Shown here in pieces: positions 1 through 40,459 of a DNA stretch of 64,000 nt; the stretch's first letter is position 1, and every line of letters begins with the position of its first letter. The DNA is from Minisyncoccia bacterium (lineage in GTDB: Bacteria > Patescibacteriota > Minisyncoccia > Phycocordibacterales > GWA1-40-21): assembly GCA_049695975.1 (NCBI GenBank), contig JBAVTE010000027.1:32972-96971 (forward strand). Direction: 5' to 3'. Both the position numbers and the translations under genes were made by a program. The notes below the pieces were generated by a model. The model saw only the letters and a program-made list of their open reading frames with translations. It was not told where the DNA came from and did no database searches.

Positions 1-2664
1 AATCATTTTGCCATTGCCGAGGAAGTGACGATCAAAGGCAACCGCACCAAACGGCCGGATATTGTCTTGTATGTGAACGGCATCGCTGTTGGCGTGATTG
101 AACTCAAACGAAGTATTGTGTCCGTGTCCGAAGGTATTCGCCAAAACATCGGTAATCAAAAAGAGGAATTTATCAAAACATTTTTCGGCACGATTCAGTT
201 GGTTATGGCCGGCAACGATACTGAAGGCTTGCGTTATGGTACGACCGAGACTCCCGAACAGCATTATCTGTCTTGGAAAGAGACCGGCCTCGGCAGTGAG
301 TCCAGATTGGACCGAGCTATCTTGCAAATTTGCGATAAGAAGCGACTTTTGGAAATCATCCACGACTTTATTGTCTTTGATAGCGGAATAAAAAAGACCT
401 GCCGACACAATCAGTATTTCGGTGTTAAGGCCGCTCAAGATTATGTAAACCGTCACGAGGGCGGAATTGTTTGGCATACGCAAGGCAGTGGCAAGAGTTT
501 GACGATGGTTTGGCTGGCCAAATGGATTCGCGAAAACATCAACGATGCTCGGGTGCTTTTGCTTACCGATCGCACCGAACTTGATCAGCAAATCAAACAG
601 GTCTTTGACGGCGTTAACGAAGAAATATATCGAGCACCAAGTGCCAGAGATTTATTGGATGAATTAAATAAAAAAGATAAGTGGTTACTTTGTTCGCTCG
701 TGCATAAATTCGGCCGAGTAAACGGGACCGGCGAACTTGATGTTGATGACTATCTTTCTGAGATAAAGAAAAATTTGCCGAAGGACTTTTCTGCTAAAGG
801 TAATTTGTTTGTATTTGTGGATGAATGTCATCGCTCCCATACCGGCAAACTGCATGAAGCCATGAAGGAACTTTTGCCAACGGCTACCTTTCTCGGTTTT
901 ACCGGCACACCGCTTCTCAAGGTTGATAAATCAAACAGCATCGGTGCCTTTGGACCGTATATCCATACTTATAAATATAATGAGGCCGTGGCCGACAAGG
1001 TGGTTTTGGATTTGCGTTATGAAGCTCGCCGAGTTGATCAAAGTATTAGCTCTCAAGATAAGATTGATGAATGGTTTGAGGAACGCACCCAAGGGCTTAC
1101 CGATGTTGCCAAAGCCGAGCTCAAGCGACGCTGGGGTACGATGCAAAGTTTGCTTTCATCCCGATCACGTTTGGAGAAAGTGGTTTTTGATATCTTGGAC
1201 GATTTCTACAAAAAGGATCGTTTAGCCAGTGGCCGTGGCAATGCCATGCTCGTTGCCAGTAGTATCTATGAAGCTTGTCAGTATTACGAGATTTTTCAGA
1301 CGATGGGCTTTACTAAGTGTGCCGTGGTGACTTCTTACGAACCCGGTGCTTTGTCTACCGATACTCGCGAATATGCGGTCTATCAGAAAATGTTAAACGG
1401 TAAAAGCACAGAAGACTTTGAGAAAGAAATCAAAAAGAAATTTATTGAGACTCCGGGTCAGATGCAGTTATTGATTGTGGTAGATAAACTTTTGACTGGT
1501 TTTGACGCACCTCCGGCCACGTATCTCTACATTGATAAGAACATGCAGGATCACGGTCTGTTCCAAGCAATCTGTCGTGTGAACCGATTGGACGGTGAAG
1601 ACAAAGAGTACGGCTACATCGTAGACTATCGGGACCTGTTCAAAAAGCTGGAGAAAGCAGTTGGCGATTATACCGCCGGTGCTCTCGAAGGTTTTGATAA
1701 AGAAGATGTGATGGGGCTTTTGAAGGATCGCATGGATGAAGGCAAAAAGGATTTGGACGAGGCGATGGAGATCGTGAAGGCACTTTGCGAGCCAGTATCT
1801 CCGCCAAAAGATTCGGCGATGTATATCCGCTATTTCTGTGGTGATGTTGAAAATCCTTACTCCCTCAAAGAAAACGAAATCAAGCGAGTGAAGCTTTATA
1901 AATCAGTCAGTCATCTACTTCGAGCTTATGCCGACTTGGCCAATGATATGGCTGGAGCTGGTTATACCAAAGATCAGGCACAAGCGATTGAGCATGAGGT
2001 TAGATATTACGAACAAGTCCGAATGGAAGTTAAACTTGCCAGCGGTGACTATATTGATCTCAAGAAATACGAACCAGCAATGCGAGTTTTGATTGATCGT
2101 TATATTTCAGCTACCGAAAGTGAAAAGTTATCGGCGTTTGATGATATGACTTTGGTGGACTTGATCGTGAAGAAAGGTGAAGACGCCTTGAATGACTTGC
2201 CGGACGCAATTAAGCAAAGTCAGGAAGCTGTTGCTGAAACGATTGAGAACAACGTCCGCAAATTGATCATTGATGAGATGCCGACTAACCCGAAGTATTA
2301 TTTGCGAATGTCTGAACTTTTGGATGAGCTGGTCAAGAAACGCAAACAGGCTGATGTTGAATATAAGGAATATTTGAAGCAGATCGTGGCTTTGTCCAAG
2401 AAGGTTAAAAACCCGATGAACGAGTCGGTTGGTGCGGAAATAAACACTTCCGCCAAGCGAGCCATTTATGACAACCTCGGTCAGGATGTGAACAAGGCTG
2501 TTGCCGTACATGATGCTGTGATCGCTTCGAGGCAAGCCGATTGGCGTGGTAATCGTTTGAAAGAGCGAGCCATTAAGATTGAAATCAAAAACGCTTTGCC
2601 GGAGATCACGGACGAGGAGTTGAAAAACCTCTTTGAGATTATTAAGAATCAAAATGAGTACTAA
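1..2664 (+). CDS. hsdR: Type I restriction enzyme R subunit (HsdR), 5'-truncated by window edge
   Basis: Frame is open from nt 1. N-terminal PD-(D/E)xK-like segment RPDIVLYVNGIAVGVIELKRS. Helicase motifs GSGKS (Walker A), FVDECHRSH (DEAH/DECH box) and FLGFTGTP. Size and order are typical of HsdR. Confidence 0.85.
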   Translation, partial: NHFAIAEEVTIKGNRTKRPDIVLYVNGIAVGVIELKRSIVSVSEGIRQNIGNQKEEFIKTFFGTIQLVMAGNDTEGLRYGTTETPEQHYLSWKETGLGSESRLDRAILQICDKKRLLEIIHDFIVFDSGIKKTCRHNQYFGVKAAQDYVNRHEGGIVWHTQGSGKSLTMVWLAKWIRENINDARVLLLTDRTELDQQIKQVFDGVNEEIYRAPSARDLLDELNKKDKWLLCSLVHKFGRVNGTGELDVDDYLSEIKKNLPKDFSAKGNLFVFVDECHRSHTGKLHEAMKELLPTATFLGFTGTPLLKVDKSNSIGAFGPYIHTYKYNEAVADKVVLDLRYEARRVDQSISSQDKIDEWFEERTQGLTDVAKAELKRRWGTMQSLLSSRSRLEKVVFDILDDFYKKDRLASGRGNAMLVASSIYEACQYYEIFQTMGFTKCAVVTSYEPGALSTDTREYAVYQKMLNGKSTEDFEKEIKKKFIETPGQMQLLIVVDKLLTGFDAPPATYLYIDKNMQDHGLFQAICRVNRLDGEDKEYGYIVDYRDLFKKLEKAVGDYTAGALEGFDKEDVMGLLKDRMDEGKKDLDEAMEIVKALCEPVSPPKDSAMYIRYFCGDVENPYSLKENEIKRVKLYKSVSHLLRAYADLANDMAGAGYTKDQAQAIEHEVRYYEQVRMEVKLASGDYIDLKKYEPAMRVLIDRYISATESEKLSAFDDMTLVDLIVKKGEDALNDLPDAIKQSQEAVAETIENNVRKLIIDEMPTNPKYYLRMSELLDELVKKRKQADVEYKEYLKQIVALSKKVKNPMNESVGAEINTSAKRAIYDNLGQDVNKAVAVHDAVIASRQADWRGNRLKERAIKIEIKNALPEITDEELKNLFEIIKNQNEY

Positions 2665-3379
2665 TTCTTATCTACAACTTGGCAGTGTCGAAGCTTTGGT
2701 CGTCCGCAAGCCGATCAAGAATTTGCATCTTTCGGTTTTACCTCCCAATGGCTGGGTGCGTGTGACCGCACCGGCCAATATGAAAGACGATGCTATCCGC
2801 ACGCTCTTAGCTTTGAGATTGCCGTGGATTAAGAAACAGCAAGCCAAATTTACCGGTCAAGAAAGGCAAACTAAGCGTGACTATTCGTCTGGTGAGAGTC
2901 ATTACTTTTTTGGCAAACGCTATCGCCTTGAAGTGGTTTATAAAGACGAAGCACCGGTTGTTACCTTGAAAGGCAAAAATAAGATTATTTTACAGGTTCG
3001 GCCAAAGAGCCCAGCAATCAAACGTCGAGAAGTGATGATGGATTGGTATCGCAAGGAATTGCATGTGATTGTTGGTGATCTAATTGCTAAGTGGCAAAAG
3101 AAAATAAGCGTAGAGGTTAAATTCTGGGGCATCAAGCAGATGAAGACTCGCTGGGGTACGTGCAATCATAAAAAGGCACGAGTCTTGATAAATTTAGAGC
3201 TGGCCAAAAAGCCGATTGCCTGCGTGGAGTATGTCGTAGTCCACGAGCTATTGCATTTGATTGAGAAAAAACACAGCGACAAATTTGTCGCCTTAATGAC
3301 AAAATATATCCCGAAATGGAAAGGCATAAAAGAAGAACTGAACAGCTTTATTTTGTCGTACGAGGAGTGGAAGTATTAA
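2654..3379 (+). CDS. DUF45/YgjP-like HExxH metal-dependent hydrolase, commonly linked to hsdR
   Basis: HELLHL zinc-binding motif and WGTCN motif. The ATG at 2654 overlaps the hsdR stop (ATGA), suggesting translational coupling. Confidence 0.6.
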   Translation: MSTNSYLQLGSVEALVVRKPIKNLHLSVLPPNGWVRVTAPANMKDDAIRTLLALRLPWIKKQQAKFTGQERQTKRDYSSGESHYFFGKRYRLEVVYKDEAPVVTLKGKNKIILQVRPKSPAIKRREVMMDWYRKELHVIVGDLIAKWQKKISVEVKFWGIKQMKTRWGTCNHKKARVLINLELAKKPIACVEYVVVHELLHLIEKKHSDKFVALMTKYIPKWKGIKEELNSFILSYEEWKY

Positions 3380-3450
3380 CCTTGACTAGTAAAAATAGGC
3401 TGTAATTTGCTATCGAAAAATTTTCGATAAACTGATATAATTATTGTAGT

Positions 3451-4518
3451 ATGAAATCACAATCCTCAAAAATTAAAGTCGTTGATTTATTTTGTGGCAT
3501 TGGTGGACTGACACACGGTCTTATCAAGGAGGGTTTAGATGTGGTCGCAGGAATTGATAACGATTCAAGCTGTAAATTTGGATATGAATACAACAACAAG
3601 GCTCAATTTATTGACAGCGACATTCTTAAGGTAACACCAGACCAAATCAATAAATTATTTGGTACAAAAAAAGGCACGATCCGTGTTCTTGCTGGTTGTG
3701 CCCCTTGCCAGCCATTTTCAAGATTGAATCTAAAAAAAGTTACCGAAAAACAACTTGAACCTTTGGGTAAATTTGCTCAACTTATCGCGGCTATTCAGCC
3801 TGACATTGTCTCGATGGAGAATGTTAGTGGTTTAGCTGATACAAATAAATATCCCGTCTTTGCAAAATTTATAAAGACACTGGATGATAATGGGTATAAA
3901 TATAAATATGAAGTAGTAGATGTCTCAGAATTTGGCGTACCTCAAAAACGAAAACGATTAGTTTTACTGGCTTCAAAGTTTGGTGAAATTGAATTGATAA
4001 AAAGAACTCACAAAGATAAGCGAGTTACTGTTCGTGATGTCATCAAACACCTTGAACCAATCAAAGATGGTCAAACAAGCAAAAAAGACCCTCTTCATAA
4101 GGCAAGAAAACTTGATCAAATAAATCTTTATCGAATCAAGGCGACTCCGCACAATGGTGGAAACTCAGAAAGTTGGAGTGAAGATTTGATGCTTGCTTGC
4201 CACAAAAAAGCATCTGGGAAAACCTATCGGAGTACCGTATATGGCCGAATGAGATGGGATGAACCAGCACCGACTATGACAACGCAATGCATAGGTCTAG
4301 GGAATGGTCGTTTTGGTCACCCAACACAAAATCGTGCTATAAGTTTAAGGGAGGCCGCAATATTTCAAACATTCCCTGAAAATTATAAATTTACCGAGTC
4401 CGAAGACTCTATGGTGGTTACTAAAGTAGCAAAGTTTATTGGAAACGCAGTACCCGTAAGGCTGGGATCAGTCATTGGCAAGAGTATCAAGAATCACGTT
4501 AGACAATATGAAAAATAA
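3451..4518 (+). CDS. dcm: DNA (cytosine-5)-methyltransferase
   Basis: Motif I DLFCGIGG, motif IV GCAPCQPFS, motif VI ENV, motif VIII QKRKR, motif X GNAVPV. Confidence 0.9.
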   Translation: MKSQSSKIKVVDLFCGIGGLTHGLIKEGLDVVAGIDNDSSCKFGYEYNNKAQFIDSDILKVTPDQINKLFGTKKGTIRVLAGCAPCQPFSRLNLKKVTEKQLEPLGKFAQLIAAIQPDIVSMENVSGLADTNKYPVFAKFIKTLDDNGYKYKYEVVDVSEFGVPQKRKRLVLLASKFGEIELIKRTHKDKRVTVRDVIKHLEPIKDGQTSKKDPLHKARKLDQINLYRIKATPHNGGNSESWSEDLMLACHKKASGKTYRSTVYGRMRWDEPAPTMTTQCIGLGNGRFGHPTQNRAISLREAAIFQTFPENYKFTESEDSMVVTKVAKFIGNAVPVRLGSVIGKSIKNHVRQYEK

Positions 4519-6211
4519 TAACACATTCTCATTCGAAATCTCATTAAGTGTTCTGAATCATCTCGGAAGGAACTTGTACAGGAATTTTATTACTGTACTT
4601 GGTGAAGCGATATCTAATTCATGGGATGCAGATGCAAATAATGTTTGGATAGATATTAATAGCGATAATAATTTTTTTATAAAAGATGATGGTTGTGGAA
4701 TGAATAACCACGATTTTCAGAATAAATTTTTGAAAATCGGCTACTCAAAGAGAAAGGGTAACGGAATATCCTCTCCGAATCATCGTCCATATATCGGTGC
4801 AAAGGGAATAGGTAAATTGGCGTTGCTTTCATGTGCTGAAAAAATAAGTGTCATATCCAAAACCAATAACACTGAATATGTCGGAGGTGTTATAGACAAT
4901 TCTGGTCTTACTAAAGCGATTGAACACGATCTGACCCCAGATAAGTATAAATTAGGAAAGGTGGATTTGAAATCATTCACGCAATATACAGCTGGGCATA
5001 AAAAAGGCACTATTATCTATTTTGATCAAACTAAAGAAGATATAAAAGGCACAATCCCGCATTTGAAGAAATTGATTGCATTATATTTTAGATTTTCTTT
5101 GATTGATGAGAGTTTTAAAATTTTTGTAAATAATGAACAAGTGACGTTTGGTGATATAAAGGACCTGTCAGATGCAACGGAATTTTTATGGAATATCAAC
5201 GACCTAAAAGATCCATATACCGACACATTATCCAAGCTCAAGAATGAGTCAATCGGTTTAAGCACTGCGTTGAAAATCAAAGGTTTTATCGCGACTGTTG
5301 AAAAACCGAGAAATTTAAAAATCGCTGGTACTGAGGAAAAAATCGGTATTGATTTATTTGTTAATGGACGATTAAGAGAAAGGGATATTTTAAAATACTT
5401 GCCTGCTTTTTCGACAAGACATATAGCGAGTTACCTTTATGGTCAAGTGCATTTTGATGAATTAGATAAGGATGGAAAAGATAGGTTTACTAGTAGTAGA
5501 GACGGGATCATTCCTGGAGATGAAAAATATAAAGGATTAATCGAAACTTTGAGAAATGAAATCCTAGAAAAAATTAGTAATAAGTGGGATGAACTTCGCT
5601 TGGCCAGAGATGAAGATGGTGATGATGAGAATCCAAGAAAAACCCTAAAAGAACGCAGAGCGCTCAGCTTGTACAACCTTTCATCAAAGGATTATTCAGG
5701 CGTTAAAAACAACAAAGTTGGTTCCTGGGTTAAAGAATTGCAACCAGATGCGGAATTCAATATCCCGTCATATGTCGACTGTTTTATATCGGAAAACCTT
5801 ATACGAAAATTTATCAAGCATAAAAAAATATCTCTTGATACCAAACGTGACACAATTAATCATTGGAAAAAAATTGAGAATACAGGAAAGACCAACGGTA
5901 ATTTGACTATTGATATAAGAGTTTCAAACGATGATATCTATTATTTGGATATGGAAAATCTTGTGAAAGTCACAGAGCCTAGAAGAGGGTTTCCTCCGAA
6001 TACTTTACTTACAGACGAAACACAGTTTACTCCTATAAGAAATGCTGTTATGCATACGGCTATGTTAACTGACCAAGCAAAGCAAAAGTTAACGACCGTC
6101 TATGAAAATATTAAAGGAAAAGTATTGATTCTTTTGGCTGATAAGAAGAAAGCTTCGACTAAAAGTATCAAAAAAACTAAAAAAGGTAGGGCAAATAATC
6201 TACTAAAGTAA
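4508..6211 (+). CDS. GHKL/HATPase_c_3 (paraMORC-like) ATP-binding protein, translationally coupled to dcm
   Basis: Bergerat-fold motifs EAISNSWDA, IKDDGCGM and GAKGIGKLA. The ATG at 4508 overlaps the dcm 3' end by 11 nt (alternative start at 4475). The C-terminal ~300 aa have no recognised domain. Confidence 0.65.
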   Translation: MKNNNTFSFEISLSVLNHLGRNLYRNFITVLGEAISNSWDADANNVWIDINSDNNFFIKDDGCGMNNHDFQNKFLKIGYSKRKGNGISSPNHRPYIGAKGIGKLALLSCAEKISVISKTNNTEYVGGVIDNSGLTKAIEHDLTPDKYKLGKVDLKSFTQYTAGHKKGTIIYFDQTKEDIKGTIPHLKKLIALYFRFSLIDESFKIFVNNEQVTFGDIKDLSDATEFLWNINDLKDPYTDTLSKLKNESIGLSTALKIKGFIATVEKPRNLKIAGTEEKIGIDLFVNGRLRERDILKYLPAFSTRHIASYLYGQVHFDELDKDGKDRFTSSRDGIIPGDEKYKGLIETLRNEILEKISNKWDELRLARDEDGDDENPRKTLKERRALSLYNLSSKDYSGVKNNKVGSWVKELQPDAEFNIPSYVDCFISENLIRKFIKHKKISLDTKRDTINHWKKIENTGKTNGNLTIDIRVSNDDIYYLDMENLVKVTEPRRGFPPNTLLTDETQFTPIRNAVMHTAMLTDQAKQKLTTVYENIKGKVLILLADKKKASTKSIKKTKKGRANNLLK

Positions 6212-33487: not shown

Positions 33488-34120
33488 ATGTCAAAATTAA
33501 AAATAATTTACAATAAGGATTTCGATGTTAAACGGGTTATAAATACAATTAAAAAAATAGATTGGTTTGTTGAGAATAAATATGAATATAAGAAATTTTC
33601 ATTCCCAAAAGTATTAGACGTAGAAAAACTGAAAGATTATTCAGATGAAGAAATAGAAAATGCTGTTATATCTGAATATGATGAAGAAGTTTATAAAAAG
33701 AATGAAACTTTTTTAATTAATCATTGGTATAAAATATCAGAAGAAATAAAGAACAGTTTTTCAAAAAGCTCTATTCCTGTACAAAATGAATATATAATAT
33801 ATTTTACAAAATATGGTACAGGGGGTAGTTATAACCTACCAAATACTGTAATTATAAATTTAACTAGCCGTTGGGAGGTTGGAATGTTGAGAACGATAAT
33901 CCACGAGATTATTCATCTTGCTATAGAAGAAAATATAATTAAATATAAAATAGGGCAAGCACAAAAGGAAAGAATTGTAGACCTATTTTTCGTCTACAAT
34001 TTTCCAAGAAGAGTATATATGCAAAATGTTTATAATTCTACAAATACAGGAAAAATTGATCAAACATTTGATGATAATTTTCCTGACATGAATGCTGTTA
34101 TTGAAAAATCTTCCCAATAA
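33488..34120 (+). CDS. Hypothetical protein with HExxH motif
   Basis: HEIIHLAIEE. No other recognisable domain. Confidence 0.4.
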   Translation: MSKLKIIYNKDFDVKRVINTIKKIDWFVENKYEYKKFSFPKVLDVEKLKDYSDEEIENAVISEYDEEVYKKNETFLINHWYKISEEIKNSFSKSSIPVQNEYIIYFTKYGTGGSYNLPNTVIINLTSRWEVGMLRTIIHEIIHLAIEENIIKYKIGQAQKERIVDLFFVYNFPRRVYMQNVYNSTNTGKIDQTFDDNFPDMNAVIEKSSQ

Positions 34121-34575: not shown

Positions 34576-35382
34576 ATGCAAGATAATTACGAGAGATTAG
34601 GTGTATATTATAAAGCTATGAAAAAAAATAAAAAAATACATATTGCCGTTTTATTTGGTGGAAAATCGGCTGAACATGAAGTATCAATTAGGTCGGCACA
34701 AAGCATTTATAATGCTCTTGATAAGCAAAAATATGACATTACTCTTATTGGCATAGATAAAAATGGTGTTTGGATTCCTTTTAATACGGAGAAATTACTT
34801 TCCAGCAAGAGAATACTTTTGAGTGAACAAAATATGAATGTTAGCACAGCTGTAGCCTCTTATGGTACTAATGGAGAATTTTTAGCAAAGAAAGGTAATG
34901 GTGGTATGAAAAAAGTTGACATTGTCTTCCCGGTTCTTCACGGTCCTTTTGGCGAGGACGGCACAATTCAAGGTTTGTTAAAGTTAGCTAATGTCCCTTT
35001 TGTCGGAGCGGGTGTTCTAGGTTCGGCGGTTGGAATGGATAAAGATGTTGCGAAGAGACTTTTACGAGATGCCGGTCTACCGACTGCCCACTTTCATGTT
35101 TATAACGAATATGAGAAAAAAACTATTTCATTTGAAAAAATTAAGGTAAACCTTGGATTACCATTTTTTATTAAACCAGCAAATCTCGGATCTTCTGTTG
35201 GTATCACAAAGGTTCATAATAAAGCTGAATTTTTAAAGGCAATAAATTCTGCATTTCACTATGACAATAAAATCCTTATTGAGGAATATATAAGGGGCAA
35301 GGAAATTGAGTGTTCTGTATTAGGTAATGGAAAGCCAACCGCATCAGTTTGTGGGGAAATTATTCCTCATCAATCCTCCTAG
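34576..35382 (+). pseudogene. ddl: D-alanine-D-alanine ligase, C-terminally truncated (about 95 aa missing)
   Basis: N-terminal and central ATP-grasp domains are intact (VLHGPFGEDGTIQGLL, FIKPANLGSSVGI). It stops just before the expected FYDYEAKY/Mg-binding region, and the truncation coincides with the left edge of the inserted island. Confidence 0.6.
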
Positions 35383-35476: not shown

Positions 35477-35673
35477 ATATTTTTTTATTTTAATTTTTTC
35501 AACTTGGACATGTCATGTCCAAGTCTAATTATCAAGTCTAAACCTTGCTACGCCTTGTAATTCCTGCGGAGGCAGGAATCCATCTTCTCTTCATCCAATC
35601 TTTTTCCGTCTGTTATTGCGAGAAAGTTTCTGACGAAGCAATCAAGTATTTTATCTTCTGACCCTAAAAGTTC

Positions 35674-36370: not shown

Positions 36371-36399
36371 TTGACGCTAATTTTACTATTTGTTACAAT
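36371..36399 (+). promoter_or_regulatory. Sigma70-like promoter (TTGACG-17-TACAAT) driving the precursor-peptide operon
   Basis: TTGACG at 36371-36376, 17-nt spacer, TACAAT at 36394-36399. Confidence 0.55.
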
Positions 36400-36472
36400 T
36401 TACAGTAGAAACCTTAGGTGTTCTAAGGTAGAGTAGGTTAGATAAGTTCATTAACAGAGAAAGGAGGTCTTT

Positions 36473-36592
36473 ATGCAGAGCCCAACTAAGAAGATGTTCA
36501 GTAAGAAAACGTTGAAGAACTCGTTTTTGCGGAGGAGGGTGTCTAGGGTCAGGTTGACTCAGGCCCTGAATGCCAGTAAGCCGGGAAGTTAA
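36473..36592 (+). CDS. 39-aa poly-cationic small ORF (candidate RiPP precursor peptide), absent from the ORF track
   Basis: AAAGGAGGT RBS lies 7 nt upstream. Sequence is MQSPTKKMFSKKTLKNSFLRRRVSRVRLTQALNASKPGS (net charge about +11). Directly followed by a hairpin, then the RRE/rSAM genes. Confidence 0.5.
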   Translation: MQSPTKKMFSKKTLKNSFLRRRVSRVRLTQALNASKPGS

Positions 36593-36612
36593 TCCCATAT
36601 TGGTGGTTGTCA

Positions 36613-36651
36613 GGTGGAACGCTCCGTATGAGCGTTCCACCTATTTTTTTT
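36613..36651 (+). terminator. Intrinsic terminator/attenuator between the precursor ORF and maturase genes
   Basis: GGTGGAACGCTC-CGTAT-GAGCGTTCCACC, a perfect 12-bp stem, followed by TATTTTTTTT. Confidence 0.75.
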
Positions 36652-36677
36652 GTTGTTTTTTGAATAAGGAGAATATC

Positions 36678-36887
36678 GTGAATGACAAATATGTAGCTCT
36701 TGTGGAAAACTTTACGTTGAAACAGTCTGTCACTTCTAGTGTCTTGTATTGTCTGAAGAGTGGTGCAATTTATGATCTTTCATTAGATCAAGTCGAGTTC
36801 TACATTTACTTGATGGATCTCAGACTATTGATCAGGTTATTGATAAATACCATAGGAAATCTAGATCCACAGTTGTACAGTTTCTAA
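36678..36887 (+). CDS. PqqD-like RRE (RiPP recognition element) N-terminal fragment, frame-shifted relative to the downstream rSAM
   Basis: GTG start with AAGGAG RBS. YCLKSGAIYDLSLDQVEFYIY matches the PqqD/RRE core. The family continuation (LDGSQTIDQVIDKYHRKSRSTVVQFLNHL) is in the -1 frame, contiguous with ORF 36893. Confidence 0.5.
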   Translation: MNDKYVALVENFTLKQSVTSSVLYCLKSGAIYDLSLDQVEFYIYLMDLRLLIRLLINTIGNLDPQLYSF

Positions 36888-38056
36888 ACCACTTGAAAGG
36901 TATTCAGGCACTGAGACTAATCAACAAACCTGTGCCAAGATTAATGCGACAAAATCTGGTACCTGATAGCCGACTCGAATCAGTTCATTTGGAAGCGAGC
37001 GGTGAATGTAACATGAAGTGTGTTCATTGCTACCAAGCAAAGTATGTCAAATCTGGTGAAAAACTTAATCACCGTGAGATTATACTTCTTCTTGATCAGC
37101 TACAGAATATGCAGGTTAGTAATGTTGGAATCAGTGGTGGTGAACCACTAATGATGCCTGATCTTACGGAAGTTATGAGAGCTATTGAAGCGAGAGATAT
37201 GAGAATCTCAGCTCTCTTTACAAATGGCCTTCTGGTCGACGACAAGTTAATCAAGGAGACGAATGCACTGCGAAGTAAGTTCTCATTCTTCATTAGCCTA
37301 GACTCGATTCCAGGACAGACACTTGCTTTCCGTGGAGTAGGGAAAAGAGCATCTAGGGTGATTCTTGAGCGGATAGTTTCAAAGATTAGGTTGTTAATTT
37401 CCAGCGGTATCAGTGTTGTCATCAATACTGTCGTAAATCTGGAAAATATCAGCTATCTTGATAAGATGTATGATTTGGTTACTGAGCTGAAAGTTGACAG
37501 TTGGAGGCTCGGTTTTCCAAAGATGACACCTGAATTCAAGAAACACAAGAATGGTTTCTATGTTGAATGGAATAGTATTGCTGAACACTGTTTGTCCTTG
37601 CTTCAGCGGCATTTGATAGGAGGCTTACCATTTCATCTGCAGATTGAGTATTTGTTCAGGGAAGAACTCTTTAAACAGGGTATACAAGAGCTATCTGACA
37701 TGGACTTTGTCTGTGATTACGAGGGTCGTCGTTCTGAGTGTTGTGTAAAGCCCAATGGAGATGTCGTCTCTTGTGCGTACTGTTCCGAGTTACCATTGGG
37801 TAACATCAGGAAGTCGTCGATTTGGGATATTTGGTATTCAACTCAAATGAGTGATTTGAAAAAGATCCAGATCAACGACGTGGTAGAGTGCAGGGGATGT
37901 GAGCTTCGTAGTCTTTGCGGAACTGGTTGCCGTGCGAATGCTCACTTTCTTCATGGAGATTTTCACAATGCTAAAGATGATTACGCTTGTTTAGCGGTAG
38001 CTTTCTTTAAGGAGAAAGTGGTCCCTCTTTTGAGGAAGTACAGTATGATTAGTTGA
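36776..38056 (+). CDS. Radical SAM/SPASM-domain peptide-modifying enzyme, with the RRE C-terminal half in-frame upstream of the annotated ATG 36893
   Basis: rSAM cluster CNMKCVHC (CX3CX2C). SPASM cysteines CAYC...CRGCELRSLCGTGC (CX2CX5CX3C). Frame open from 36776. Confidence 0.75.
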   Translation, partial: SFIRSSRVLHLLDGSQTIDQVIDKYHRKSRSTVVQFLNHLKGIQALRLINKPVPRLMRQNLVPDSRLESVHLEASGECNMKCVHCYQAKYVKSGEKLNHREIILLLDQLQNMQVSNVGISGGEPLMMPDLTEVMRAIEARDMRISALFTNGLLVDDKLIKETNALRSKFSFFISLDSIPGQTLAFRGVGKRASRVILERIVSKIRLLISSGISVVINTVVNLENISYLDKMYDLVTELKVDSWRLGFPKMTPEFKKHKNGFYVEWNSIAEHCLSLLQRHLIGGLPFHLQIEYLFREELFKQGIQELSDMDFVCDYEGRRSECCVKPNGDVVSCAYCSELPLGNIRKSSIWDIWYSTQMSDLKKIQINDVVECRGCELRSLCGTGCRANAHFLHGDFHNAKDDYACLAVAFFKEKVVPLLRKYSMIS

Positions 38057-38152: not shown

Positions 38153-38890
38153 ATGAATAATTATAAAAACTTTTCAAAATATTATGACATGGCTATGGGT
38201 GACAGAACGGCAGAGGGTATATTTATTAAGAAATTAATAAAACAGTATAATTCGAAGGCAAAGACTGTATTAGAATTGGGCTGCGGTACAGGAGCCTTTC
38301 TTAAATATCTCTCAAATCATGGCTATAAAATGGCAGGAATTGATTTATCACAGGAGATGCTAGAAATTGCAAGACAGAAGGTTCCGAATGCTAATCTGTT
38401 ATGTCAAAATATGGCAATTTTTTCCTTGCAATTAAAATTTGATGTTGTTTTGTGTTTATTTGATTCAATAAATCACTTAATTGATTATAATGATTGGGAA
38501 AAGGTTTTTCTCCAGACATATCTACACTTGAATGATAGTGGTTTATTTATCTTTGACATTAATACAAAATCAAAACTAGATATACTTGCAGGGTCCGATC
38601 CAATTGTTAATGAAGTGGATAATAAAATAATTTCTATGAAAGTAATTTTGAAAAATAATATTTATAATTGGAATATTAAAATAGTTGAAAAACAACCAAA
38701 TGATAGCGAAATGATATATTTAGAAAATATTCAAGAACAATCATTTCCAATATCAATGATAGAAAAATCGCTCAAGAAAAATTTTGAAAAGGTTATTAAG
38801 ATTAGTCAAAGTGGTATGCAAGCAACTGAAAATTCTCGACGGGTATACTTCATTTGCCTTAAGAATTTAGAAAATAAATTGAAGAGGTAA
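38153..38890 (+). CDS. Class I SAM-dependent methyltransferase
   Basis: Motif I VLELGCGTGAF and motif II CLFDSINHL. Confidence 0.75.
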   Translation: MNNYKNFSKYYDMAMGDRTAEGIFIKKLIKQYNSKAKTVLELGCGTGAFLKYLSNHGYKMAGIDLSQEMLEIARQKVPNANLLCQNMAIFSLQLKFDVVLCLFDSINHLIDYNDWEKVFLQTYLHLNDSGLFIFDINTKSKLDILAGSDPIVNEVDNKIISMKVILKNNIYNWNIKIVEKQPNDSEMIYLENIQEQSFPISMIEKSLKKNFEKVIKISQSGMQATENSRRVYFICLKNLENKLKR

Positions 38891-38922: not shown

Positions 38923-39258
38923 CTAATAAACAGGCAACACAATCATAATGTTGTGTGTCAAAACCTTTAGAGCCATTTCTCGGCATTGACACCAATATGT
39001 TTTAGAAAGAATTGACTCAGACAGATTCCGTTTCAGCATACTCATCACTGTTTCCGATTGCCATCTCTGACCATATTCCCCCTTGTCGAAATGTTCTACT
39101 ATTTCCCTTCGATATTTTCCGCTAGGCAGTTTCTTTTTTGGACGTCCTATTTTTGGATTAATAATTGAGTGTATCTGCAGTTTTTCTCGTGAATAGACAT
39201 GATTAGATTCACTATCATAACCAGCGTCGGCCGTGATTGTTTTAATGGGAAATTACTA
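38923..39258 (-). pseudogene. IS4/IS5-superfamily DDE transposase, C-terminal fragment only
   Basis: Minus-strand translation gives TITADAGYDSESNHVYSREKLQIHSIINPKIGRPKKKLPSGKYRREIVEHFDKGEYGQRWQSETVMSMLKRNL...VLPVY*. No start codon; stops lie directly upstream. Confidence 0.6.
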
Positions 39259-39295: not shown

Positions 39296-39401
39296 CGACT
39301 GTCATTCCCGCGGAGGCGGGAATCAAGAATAGTTTTATTATTAAGGTTAAGCCTTGCCACGCCTTATTTCTTTTTTTACCATTTATATATATAATAAATA
39401 A

Positions 39402-40310
39402 ATGAAAATAAACAATTCAAATGAAGATGTTTCGATTGGGGTGATTGCTCCAGCACGGCCGATTTATAATATTCAAAAAGAAATCGACGATGGAATTACC
39501 GAAATAAAGAGTTTTGGTTTTAATGTTAAAAAAAGTAACAATTTGAATAAAAAATTGTTTTATTCAGCAGGAACTGTCGAAGAACGCGTGTCCGATATTC
39601 ATGAAATGTTTTCTGATAAAAAAGTCAAAGCTATTATATGTGCTACAGGTGGTGCCAGTTCTAACCAATTAATAGAACATCTAGATTTTGATTTAATAAA
39701 GAAAAATCTTAAAATATTTATGGGATATAGTGATATTACCGCTTTACTGCTTGCAATCAACAAAAAAACTAGCATGCCTACATTTTATGGTCCCATGATT
39801 AGAGACTTTGCTGGTTTAACAGATGAAGCTAAAAAATTTACAGAAGATTTACTGAAAGGAAAGAGTAAAAATTTAAATTATCTACAACCATACAAAACAT
39901 TACGAAAGGGTAAGGTTCGAGGTAAACTAGTCGGCGGAGTACTGACTGTATTTAATAGTTTGTTGGCTACACCATATATGCCAGATTTAAAAGGGAAAAT
40001 TCTTTTTTGGGAAGAGGTTGGCACTTGTCCGGCACAGATTGATTTTTTATTACAGGAATTAAAATTGGCTGGAGTGTTTAAGAAAATTAAAGGAATGGTG
40101 GTTGGATATCTATCAGATTGTACGGATAAGAAATATCCGCAAGACAATCGTTCCATTGATGAAATTATTTTAGGGCGAACTAAAGGTTTTGATTTTCCAA
40201 TAATTAAAGTTGATTATTTTGGTCATGATGTAAAAAACTTTCTTGCTATTCCGATTGGTACAGAAGCAATCATAGATACAAATAAAAAGATTTTTTCTGT
40301 TAAATTATAA
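39402..40310 (+). CDS. S66-family LD-carboxypeptidase (LdcA/MccF-like)
   Basis: IGVIAPARP N-terminus and nucleophile motif GYSDITALL. Confidence 0.75.
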   Translation: MKINNSNEDVSIGVIAPARPIYNIQKEIDDGITEIKSFGFNVKKSNNLNKKLFYSAGTVEERVSDIHEMFSDKKVKAIICATGGASSNQLIEHLDFDLIKKNLKIFMGYSDITALLLAINKKTSMPTFYGPMIRDFAGLTDEAKKFTEDLLKGKSKNLNYLQPYKTLRKGKVRGKLVGGVLTVFNSLLATPYMPDLKGKILFWEEVGTCPAQIDFLLQELKLAGVFKKIKGMVVGYLSDCTDKKYPQDNRSIDEIILGRTKGFDFPIIKVDYFGHDVKNFLAIPIGTEAIIDTNKKIFSVKL

Positions 40311-40459
40311 AAATAGGCTTATTTTTTGTCCGCTCCTGAGTAATATGTAATTATCAAGGCTAAAAAAAGCCTTGCTACGCCTCACCCAATACAAGAAAAA
40401 CACTTTAGTTGACAATTACTTGACAATTGAATACAGATTGGTTTACAATAGAGTAACCT

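Follow-up and report, generated by a model that had tools for sequence, protein, structure and literature searches.

A one-nucleotide frameshift splits a gene for a fused radical SAM/SPASM peptide maturase in the genome sequence of a Minisyncoccia bacterium

Introduction

Two open reading frames (ORFs) that lie in different frames of the same strand, and that together resemble a single enzyme, raise the question of whether they represent two genes or one gene from which a base is missing and, in the latter case, whether the base is missing from the organism or only from its published sequence. This question is posed by a 64 000-nucleotide stretch of the genome of a Minisyncoccia bacterium (GenBank assembly GCA_049695975.1, contig JBAVTE010000027.1, positions 32 972 to 96 971 of the forward strand; hereafter, the window), in which positions 36678–38056 encode the parts of a putative radical SAM/SPASM maturase of a ribosomally synthesized and post-translationally modified peptide (RiPP). 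Enzymes of this kind may carry a RiPP recognition element (RRE) and, at the C-terminus, a SPASM domain, whose seven-cysteine motif including CX2CX5CX3C serves to hold two auxiliary [4Fe-4S] clusters. A first-pass annotation, made from the letters of the window, had proposed that a one-nucleotide indel separates the RRE from the catalytic domain of what was once a fused protein, and had offered recent pseudogenisation, a sequencing or assembly error and programmed frameshifting as its causes. Here, we re-examine the reading frames, the homologues and the genetic context of this maturase gene and weigh the explanations of its present state.

Results

The 5′ part of the gene lies in frame 0, where an ORF of 69 codons, preceded by the strong Shine–Dalgarno sequence AAGGAG at 36667–36672, runs on the forward strand from GTG 36678 to TAA 36885–36887 and reads VNDKYVALVENFTLKQSVTSSVLYCLKSGAIYDLSLDQVEFYIYLMDLRLLIRLLINTIGNLDPQLYSF. 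It opens with VNDKYVALVENFTLKQSVTSSVLYCLKSGAIYDLSLDQVEF and goes on as YIYLMDLRLLIRLLINTIGNLDPQLYSF up to the stop, but the homology with orthologues ends at codon 41–44, the remainder being out-of-frame junk. The −1 (+2) frame of the same strand has a TGA at 36773–36775 and is open from 36776 to the stop codon at 38054–38056. There, the sequence RVLHLLDGSQTIDQVIDKYHRKSRSTVVQFLNHLKGIQALRLINKP leads directly into the radical SAM/SPASM ORF that ends at 38056, and the frame reads RVLHLLDGSQTIDQVIDKYHRKSRSTVVQFLNHLKGIQALRLINKPVPRLMRQNLVPDSRLESVHLEASGECNMKCVHCYQ and onwards through the enzyme. The distribution of the RRE halves between the two frames, as well as the opening of the −1 frame at 36776, are thus as the first-pass annotation had described them. 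The ATG that it placed at 36893 is in fact a TTG, which is the earliest ATG, GTG or TTG codon of this frame and stands 5 nt past the TAA of frame 0; the earliest ATG is found at 36944. Neither TTG 36893 nor ATG 36944 is preceded by a Shine–Dalgarno sequence.

Insertion of a single base yields a protein of 459 amino acids, which matches full-length single-ORF homologues with an E-value of 1.6e-213. To locate the lesion, a hidden Markov model (HMM) was built from 74 full-length homologues, and every 1-nt insertion and 2-nt deletion was scored over positions 36770–36830. The best repair, a 1-nt insertion at 36797–36801 (gag ttc [c/t]ta cat tta, translated as EFLHLLDG), reached 701.8 bits. An insertion in the TTT run at 36804–36807 (EFYILLDG) reached 697.7 bits, i.e. 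4 bits below the best, whereas repair by a 2-nt deletion was rejected, its best score of 693.0 bits being ∼9 bits under that of the 1-nt insertion. The downstream 387-aa ORF alone scores 623.5 bits against the family HMM, so that the repair gains 78 bits; together with the E-value of the repaired protein, this difference shows that the resemblance of the two neighbouring ORFs to parts of one gene did not arise by chance. Adding one C or T after 36800 produces a gapless codon-by-codon alignment with the genes of the related loci L002, L087, L093, L103, L105 and L107, and the repaired junction reads SLDQVEF[L/Y][H/I]LLDGSQTIDQVIDK. The most likely event would be a loss of the CC→C or TT→T type at 36798–36801. 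The earlier suggestion of a single-nucleotide indel at 36800–36812 therefore holds as to the nature of the lesion, while the zone itself has to be moved slightly in the 5′ direction, to 36797–36807.

A search of a collection of 5.8 billion proteins with the repaired 459-aa query returned 89 specific relatives, about 75 of which are single ORFs of 455–500 aa that cover 97–100% of the query at no more than 68% identity. Most relatives come from bacteria of the candidate phyla radiation (CPR) and from DPANN archaea; the few whose sources are named belong to Nomurabacteria, Kaiserbacteria, Kuenenbacteria, Parcubacteria, the ‘Patescibacteria group’, Nanoarchaeota and Aenigmarchaeota. The N-termini of the homologues (MNKKYVSLSENFT) line up with GTG 36678, and no stand-alone full-length RRE ORF was found in any orthologue. 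Three short homologues, P0011 among them, had been suspected of being split genes, but none proved to be one. One of them, P0080 (L005), reflects a start call at an internal methionine of an intact ORF, and P0062 (L109) is cut by the end of its contig; other shorter calls (L085 and L088–L091) are independent disruptions, described below, rather than a stand-alone architecture. Fusion is accordingly the norm in this family, and the comparison with orthologues that the first-pass annotation had called for did not reveal the two-ORF arrangement with an intact separate RRE. These comparisons indicate that the gene at 36678–38056 is ancestrally one ORF of ∼459 codons, in which an RRE of the winged helix-turn-helix type is fused to a radical SAM/SPASM peptide maturase, and that a one-nucleotide indel split it; one inserted base restores codon colinearity. 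A metagenome scan with the repaired protein gave no full-length match closer than 66%. A scan of contigs with the family alignment was dominated by generic radical SAM/SPASM patterns and returned L005 as the sole true member of the family.

The N-terminal domain could be classified at the level of the fold rather than by sequence profiles. Pfam gave no hit to PqqD (PF05402) at E ≤ 1 for the repaired domain, and PqqD is weakly matched by only 9 of 51 family members (best E-value, 0.0011). When the family profile was compared with the sequences of the Protein Data Bank (PDB), winged-helix and PqqD matches were marginal (E = 0.18 for PqqD), although the full-length profile aligned with the RRE-containing N-terminus of CteB. 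In the AlphaFold2 (AF2) model of the repaired protein, the N-terminal elements follow each other in the order β–β–β–β–α1 (residues 36–43)–short strand–α2–α3. The isolated 95-residue domain was modelled with a predicted local distance difference test score (pLDDT) of 86.8, with strands at residues 5–8, 12–16, 21–25, 31–34, 46–50 and 79–82 and helices at residues 36–44, 51–56 and 60–75. All of its top 22 Foldseek matches in the PDB are RiPP proteins that contain an RRE. TbiB1 bound to its leader ranks first, with a template modelling (TM) score of 0.67–0.71 and a root mean square deviation (rmsd) of 2.4 Å, and is followed by PbtF, lasso B1, ThcOx, LynD/TruD, TigE, SuiB and CteB. Since these matches are exclusively RREs, the modelled domain has the RRE fold. 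The designation ‘PqqD-like’ given to it in the first-pass annotation is thus borne out by the fold, but not by Pfam. The domain is kept in all complete homologues, with near-invariant L8, L23, L34, Q38, G47, Y58, S62 and L73, and is therefore under selection. Its fold, together with the conserved co-located precursor described below, suggests that it would bind the leader of the cognate precursor peptide. In known RREs, both the β-sheet and the helices are required for leader binding; in the window, the frameshift falls inside helix α1 (residues 36–43) and parts the β-sheet from helices α1–α3.

The remainder of the protein is that of a radical SAM enzyme with a SPASM domain. Both domains score above their Pfam cutoffs (PF04055, 62.9 bits against 29.5; PF13186, 35.3 bits against 21.5). 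The CX3CX2C motif, C111-NMK-C115-VH-C118, is invariant among 60 sequences, and the cysteines of the SPASM domain (C346, C355/C356, C366, C405-x2-C408-x5-C414-x3-C418 and C438) show little or no variation. Computed from an alignment of 60 sequences, the AF2 model of the repaired protein reached a pLDDT of 94.8 and a predicted TM score of 0.92, and its best whole-chain structural matches are the solved radical SAM enzymes SuiB, CteB, TigE and SkfB. All named radical SAM/SPASM equivalogs (ScmE, NirJ, MftC, PqqE, StsB, GeoRSP, WgkB, DynA and others) remained far below their NCBIfam cutoffs, the top score being 99.3 bits for ScmE against a cutoff of 400. The maturase family is uncurated and belongs to no curated NCBIfam equivalog.

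The maturase gene is part of a cassette, whose elements are listed in Table 1. In every locus where the peptide was found (the window, L001, L002–L004, L085/L093, L103, L105 and L107), a peptide of 26–46 aa containing RLTQALNA is encoded directly 5′ of the maturase gene, for example at 5780–5899 in L002 and at 3699–3821 in L085. A profile search yielded 25 further precursors (P0121–P0145) of 30–63 aa, all of them unnamed or annotated as ‘hypothetical’. RLTQALNA is present in all, RLTQALNAS in most, and PG stands near the C-terminus of most. The leaders are variable and basic and contain L-x-N/H-S-x-L-x-K/R-R. The RLTQALNA core has neither cysteine nor aromatic residues, and the cysteine that 3 of the 25 precursors possess is confined to the leader. 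The precursors matched no model of Pfam or NCBIfam, and in the literature searched nothing specific was found on the precursor motif or on radical SAM RiPPs of CPR bacteria. With a short precursor adjoining the maturase, a variable leader and a conserved core, the locus has the organization of a RiPP cassette.

L002 and L085 have equivalent hairpins in the corresponding position, and the hairpin is presumed to act as an attenuator that sets the ratio of precursor to enzyme. The order maturase–methyltransferase recurs in L002–L004, L085, L089, L103, L105, L107 and L109, and the pair is retained at identities as low as 43%; the full order precursor–hairpin–maturase–methyltransferase is shared with L002–L004 and L085/L093.

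Table 1. Features of the maturase cassette and its surroundings, in window coordinates
Feature	Position	Strand	Basis and remarks
Promoter-like site TTGACG-17-TACAAT with extended TG, 5′ of the precursor gene	36371–36399	+	Match to the consensus alone, of a kind not enriched relative to shuffled sequences
Intact gene of 39-aa precursor peptide, MQSPTKKMFSKKTLKNSFLRRRVSRVRLTQALNASKPGS	36473–36592	+	ORF; Shine–Dalgarno sequence AAAGGAGG at 36460–36467
Strong intrinsic-terminator-like hairpin between precursor and maturase genes	36612–36652	+	13 bp with 8 G–C pairs (36612–36642), followed by a T8 run
Frame-0 remnant of the maturase gene	36678–36887	+	Codons 1 to 41–44 homologous: RRE strands β1–β3 and start of helix α1
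−1 frame of the maturase gene: RRE helices α1–α3 (repaired residues ∼43–82), linker, radical SAM core, SPASM domain	36776–38056	+	Translation, Pfam, alignment, AF2
Frameshift site, one base short relative to orthologues	36797–36807	+	HMM repair scores, codon alignment
TTG, first start-type codon in the −1 frame	36893–36895	+	Product from here would be without the entire RRE
Intact class-I SAM methyltransferase gene, conserved partner 3′ of the maturase gene	38153–38890	+	Pfam
DDE transposase relic, C-terminal ∼60% only	38926–39252	−	PF01609 profile positions 78–198 of 200; between methyltransferase and S66 peptidase genes

Two relatives carry other disruptions of the maturase gene. In L085, a TGA occupies the codon of the conserved Gly27 (L085 3983–3988), where L093, 99.97% identical over 7.4 kb, has GGA. 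Recoding of UGA as glycine (genetic code 25) was considered for L085 and rejected, the precursor gene there ending in TGA at the length typical of the family and L093 having GGA. In L088–L091, recovered from four samples, the maturase gene is 5′-truncated at about codon 45, with unrelated DNA upstream and the precursor gene lost; set against L086/L087, these loci share 99.87% identity with intact L087 from about codon 45 onwards. Counting the frameshift of the window, if real, the maturase gene is knocked out in three independent lineages, each time in the RRE-coding first 10%, by a nonsense codon (codon 27), a frameshift (codon 42–45) and a rearrangement (codon 45). In both relatives, near-identical intact alleles exist alongside the broken ones.

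Several features were observed in the neighbourhood of the cassette. The D-Ala-D-Ala ligase gene (ddl) at 34576–35382 is 3′-truncated, covering positions 1–108 of 204 of the Dala_Dala_lig_C ATP-grasp profile; no continuation was found downstream in any frame, and the gene is likely a pseudogene or gene remnant. A short repeat, composed of the palindrome attcc[t/c]gcggaggc[a/g]ggaat and of ccttgc[t/c]acgcct, is found at 35540–35583, 39302–39364 and 40367–40382 and translates into spurious ‘IPAEAGI’ or ‘SFPRRRES’ peptides. Its copies flank the hydrolase–precursor–maturase–methyltransferase block, which suggests that this block lies in a rearranged or mobile region. A small HExxH protein without a Pfam family, encoded at 33488–34120, is 35% identical (E = 5e-19) to the product of the gene that abuts the truncated maturase gene in L089 (2391–2849, reverse strand) and weakly similar (E = 1e-4) to that of L103 2157–2669, just upstream of the precursor gene. 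It may represent a recurrent neighbour, and perhaps a leader peptidase. An S66 LD-carboxypeptidase/MccF-like peptidase gene (39402–40310) follows the maturase–methyltransferase pair in the window, and likewise in the Parcubacteria loci L105/L106 (5444–6436), but not in L002, L085 and L103; it could represent conserved synteny or an accessory gene for processing or immunity. Farther away, positions 25–6211 of the window contain a cluster of the restriction-modification or defence type, with a type I restriction R subunit, a YgjP-like metallopeptidase, a C-5 cytosine DNA methylase and a GHKL-ATPase protein.

Discussion

The missing base may have been lost by the organism or by the assembly. We favour a genuine deletion over an assembly indel and consider it slightly more probable than not that the loss is real, very recent and inactivating, in which case the locus would be a pseudogene in its earliest stage or the consensus would have recorded a loss allele. 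As in pseudogenes, the reading frame is disrupted with respect to intact orthologues. This is the sole frameshift detected across 64 kb of otherwise contiguous ORFs, which are long and tightly packed, the members of adjacent or overlapping pairs being distinct full-length Pfam domains, and the largest intergenic gap contains four transfer RNA genes. Such a cleanly assembled window makes a noisy assembly unlikely. Moreover, the lesion lies in a run of 2–3 nt, with no homopolymer of at least four nucleotides, whereas indel errors concentrate in long homopolymers. The flanking DNA shows real decay, in the form of the 3′-truncated ddl gene and the DDE transposase relic, and the related populations described above show genuine disruptions of the same gene.

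Several observations weigh against a real deletion. One base suffices to restore a protein in which 38 of 38 family-invariant residues are retained. The residues that would be untranslatable if the shift were real (43–72 of the repaired protein) are as similar to the homologues as the homologues are among themselves (0.39 in both cases), and the same holds for residues 1–42 (0.54 in both cases) and for residues 73–459 (0.66 to the homologues, 0.64 among them). Both the precursor gene and the methyltransferase gene are intact; exact-match look-ups of the 387-aa ORF product and of the methyltransferase returned no record, and no near-identical contig was found in public data for comparison. As no segment displays relaxed constraint, not even these 30 codons, the lesion must be of very recent date or an artefact; exactly the same picture would be expected if an indel had entered the consensus or assembly of a functional gene. 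In that event the consensus would be wrong and the organism would possess an intact RRE–radical SAM/SPASM ORF of 459 codons. Noisy assembly does affect this cassette elsewhere: in L001, the maturase and methyltransferase genes are broken into several pieces. An assembly indel is accordingly a serious possibility, to which we nevertheless give less credence than to the loss of the base in the organism.

If the deletion is genuine, it may be one case of a recurrent on/off polymorphism, that is of loss alleles, in a cassette found widely among CPR and DPANN genomes and as yet uncharacterised. The disruptions in L085 and L088–L091, with their intact counterparts, invite this reading, which we regard as unlikely; ascertainment bias or chance may have brought the three cases together. 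Were it correct, the polymorphism could reflect selection for ‘cheating’ or cost-avoiding variants that do not make a shared peptide product or a cofactor derived from a peptide.

Alternatively, the split could be functional: an enzyme devoid of the RRE, produced by termination and reinitiation at TTG 36893 or ATG 36944, would still modify the precursor, and the 5′ ORF would be dispensable. The short distance between the stop codon and the TTG would allow for this, the product starting at ATG 36944 retains a complete radical SAM core and SPASM domain, and in L088–L091 the 5′-truncated copy keeps an ORF of 406 codons next to an intact methyltransferase gene. However, the candidate restart codons lack the Shine–Dalgarno sequences that precede both GTG 36678 and the precursor gene, and the N-terminal domain is under selection in all complete homologues. 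The L088–L091 loci have also lost the precursor gene, which argues for decay rather than for a new architecture. A functional split therefore seems improbable.

The remaining proposal of the first-pass annotation was programmed frameshifting. A programmed −1 shift of the ribosome, or slippage during transcription, that would make the fused enzyme from the split gene is very unlikely indeed: although the two frames overlap at 36776–36887 and a −1 shift near 36797–36807 would give the native protein, the analysis revealed no canonical heptamer (X XXY YYZ) in 36770–36885 (the sole near match, AGGAAAT at 36854, lies too far 3′ to restore homology), no homopolymer of at least four nucleotides for polymerase slippage in the overlap, no stimulatory structure in the 95 nt downstream, which fold no better than shuffled sequences (z = +0.85), no restart codon before TTG 36893, and not one of the ∼75 orthologues with a frameshift at this place.

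Should the deletion be real, ribosomes starting at GTG 36678 would make a 69-residue peptide, with ∼42 native residues followed by ∼27 junk residues, and would stop at TAA 36885. Helices α1–α3 of the RRE would be untranslatable, because TTG 36893 is the earliest possible start in the −1 frame. The most to be expected would be a weak reinitiation, giving an RRE-less enzyme incapable of docking the precursor leader, and the precursor–maturase–methyltransferase cassette would consequently be functionally off. In the intact system, a promoter would yield abundant precursor transcript, and read-through of the hairpin would lead to a smaller amount of enzyme. The RRE would then dock the leader of the precursor, the radical SAM/SPASM domain would modify the invariant core by hydrogen-atom abstraction, and the methyltransferase would add a methyl group. 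As the core is devoid of cysteine and aromatic residues, a crosslink based on Thr, Gln or Asn, or an epimerisation, would be the obvious candidates for the modification.

For annotation, it follows that the two ORFs should be described as one disrupted RRE–radical SAM/SPASM maturase gene instead of being listed separately as a small hypothetical protein and a 387-aa radical SAM protein, and that, short of contrary proof from reads, the cassette should be left out of counts of functional ones. As a phenomenon, the frameshift is unremarkable, and the maturase is a member of an uncharacterised family of a well-known kind. What is mildly surprising is only the recurrence of disruptions in relatives and the strict conservation of the precursor core. 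A strictly conserved core without cysteine or aromatic residues is unusual for substrates of radical SAM/SPASM enzymes and would reward biochemical characterisation.

One of the closest characterized systems is SuiB, which introduces the Lys–Trp crosslink of streptide (PDB 5V1Q, 5V1S and 5V1T) and likewise consists of an N-terminal RRE, a radical SAM core and a SPASM domain. SuiB is the best whole-chain match of the repaired protein (Foldseek E = 1.8e-18, TM score 0.65–0.67 over 471 aligned columns; profile match E = 1.7e-16), but the two proteins are only 16% identical, and the precursor of the window has neither a Lys/Trp pair nor a KxxxW motif. CteB and other sactisynthases (5WGG and 5WHY), SkfB (6EFN) and TigE (8VPO) are also radical SAM/SPASM maturases of RiPPs with a fused RRE or an N-terminal extension. 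The profile alignment with CteB starts inside the RRE of that enzyme (query residues 21–216 to chain residues 16–222), and the RRE of TigE matches the isolated domain of the window with a TM score of 0.69. Sactipeptide and ranthipeptide chemistry requires cysteine in the core; in contrast, the RLTQALNA core has none. The PqqE/PqqD and MftC/MftB systems resemble the present one in combining a radical SAM/SPASM enzyme and a PqqD-type RRE that act on a very short precursor with a highly conserved core. PqqD is the commonest Pfam match, albeit a weak one, of the N-terminal domain of the family, and MftC aligns over residues 108–425. The scores of 88.5 for MftC (cutoff 265) and 73.7 for PqqE (cutoff 381) are nonetheless far below the thresholds, and in the family studied here the RRE is fused rather than separate, the partner is a methyltransferase, and the hosts are CPR bacteria and DPANN archaea. 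Finally, the stand-alone RREs of lasso peptide pathways, TbiB1 (5V1V and 5V1U) and B1 (6JX3), share with the domain of the window the winged helix-turn-helix of three strands and three helices (TM score 0.67–0.71, rmsd 2.4–2.9 Å over 79–83 columns). These are separate small proteins with ∼15% identity to the domain, whereas the latter is the N-terminus of an enzyme, and the apparently ‘stand-alone’ ORF of the window is a truncated fragment made by the frameshift.

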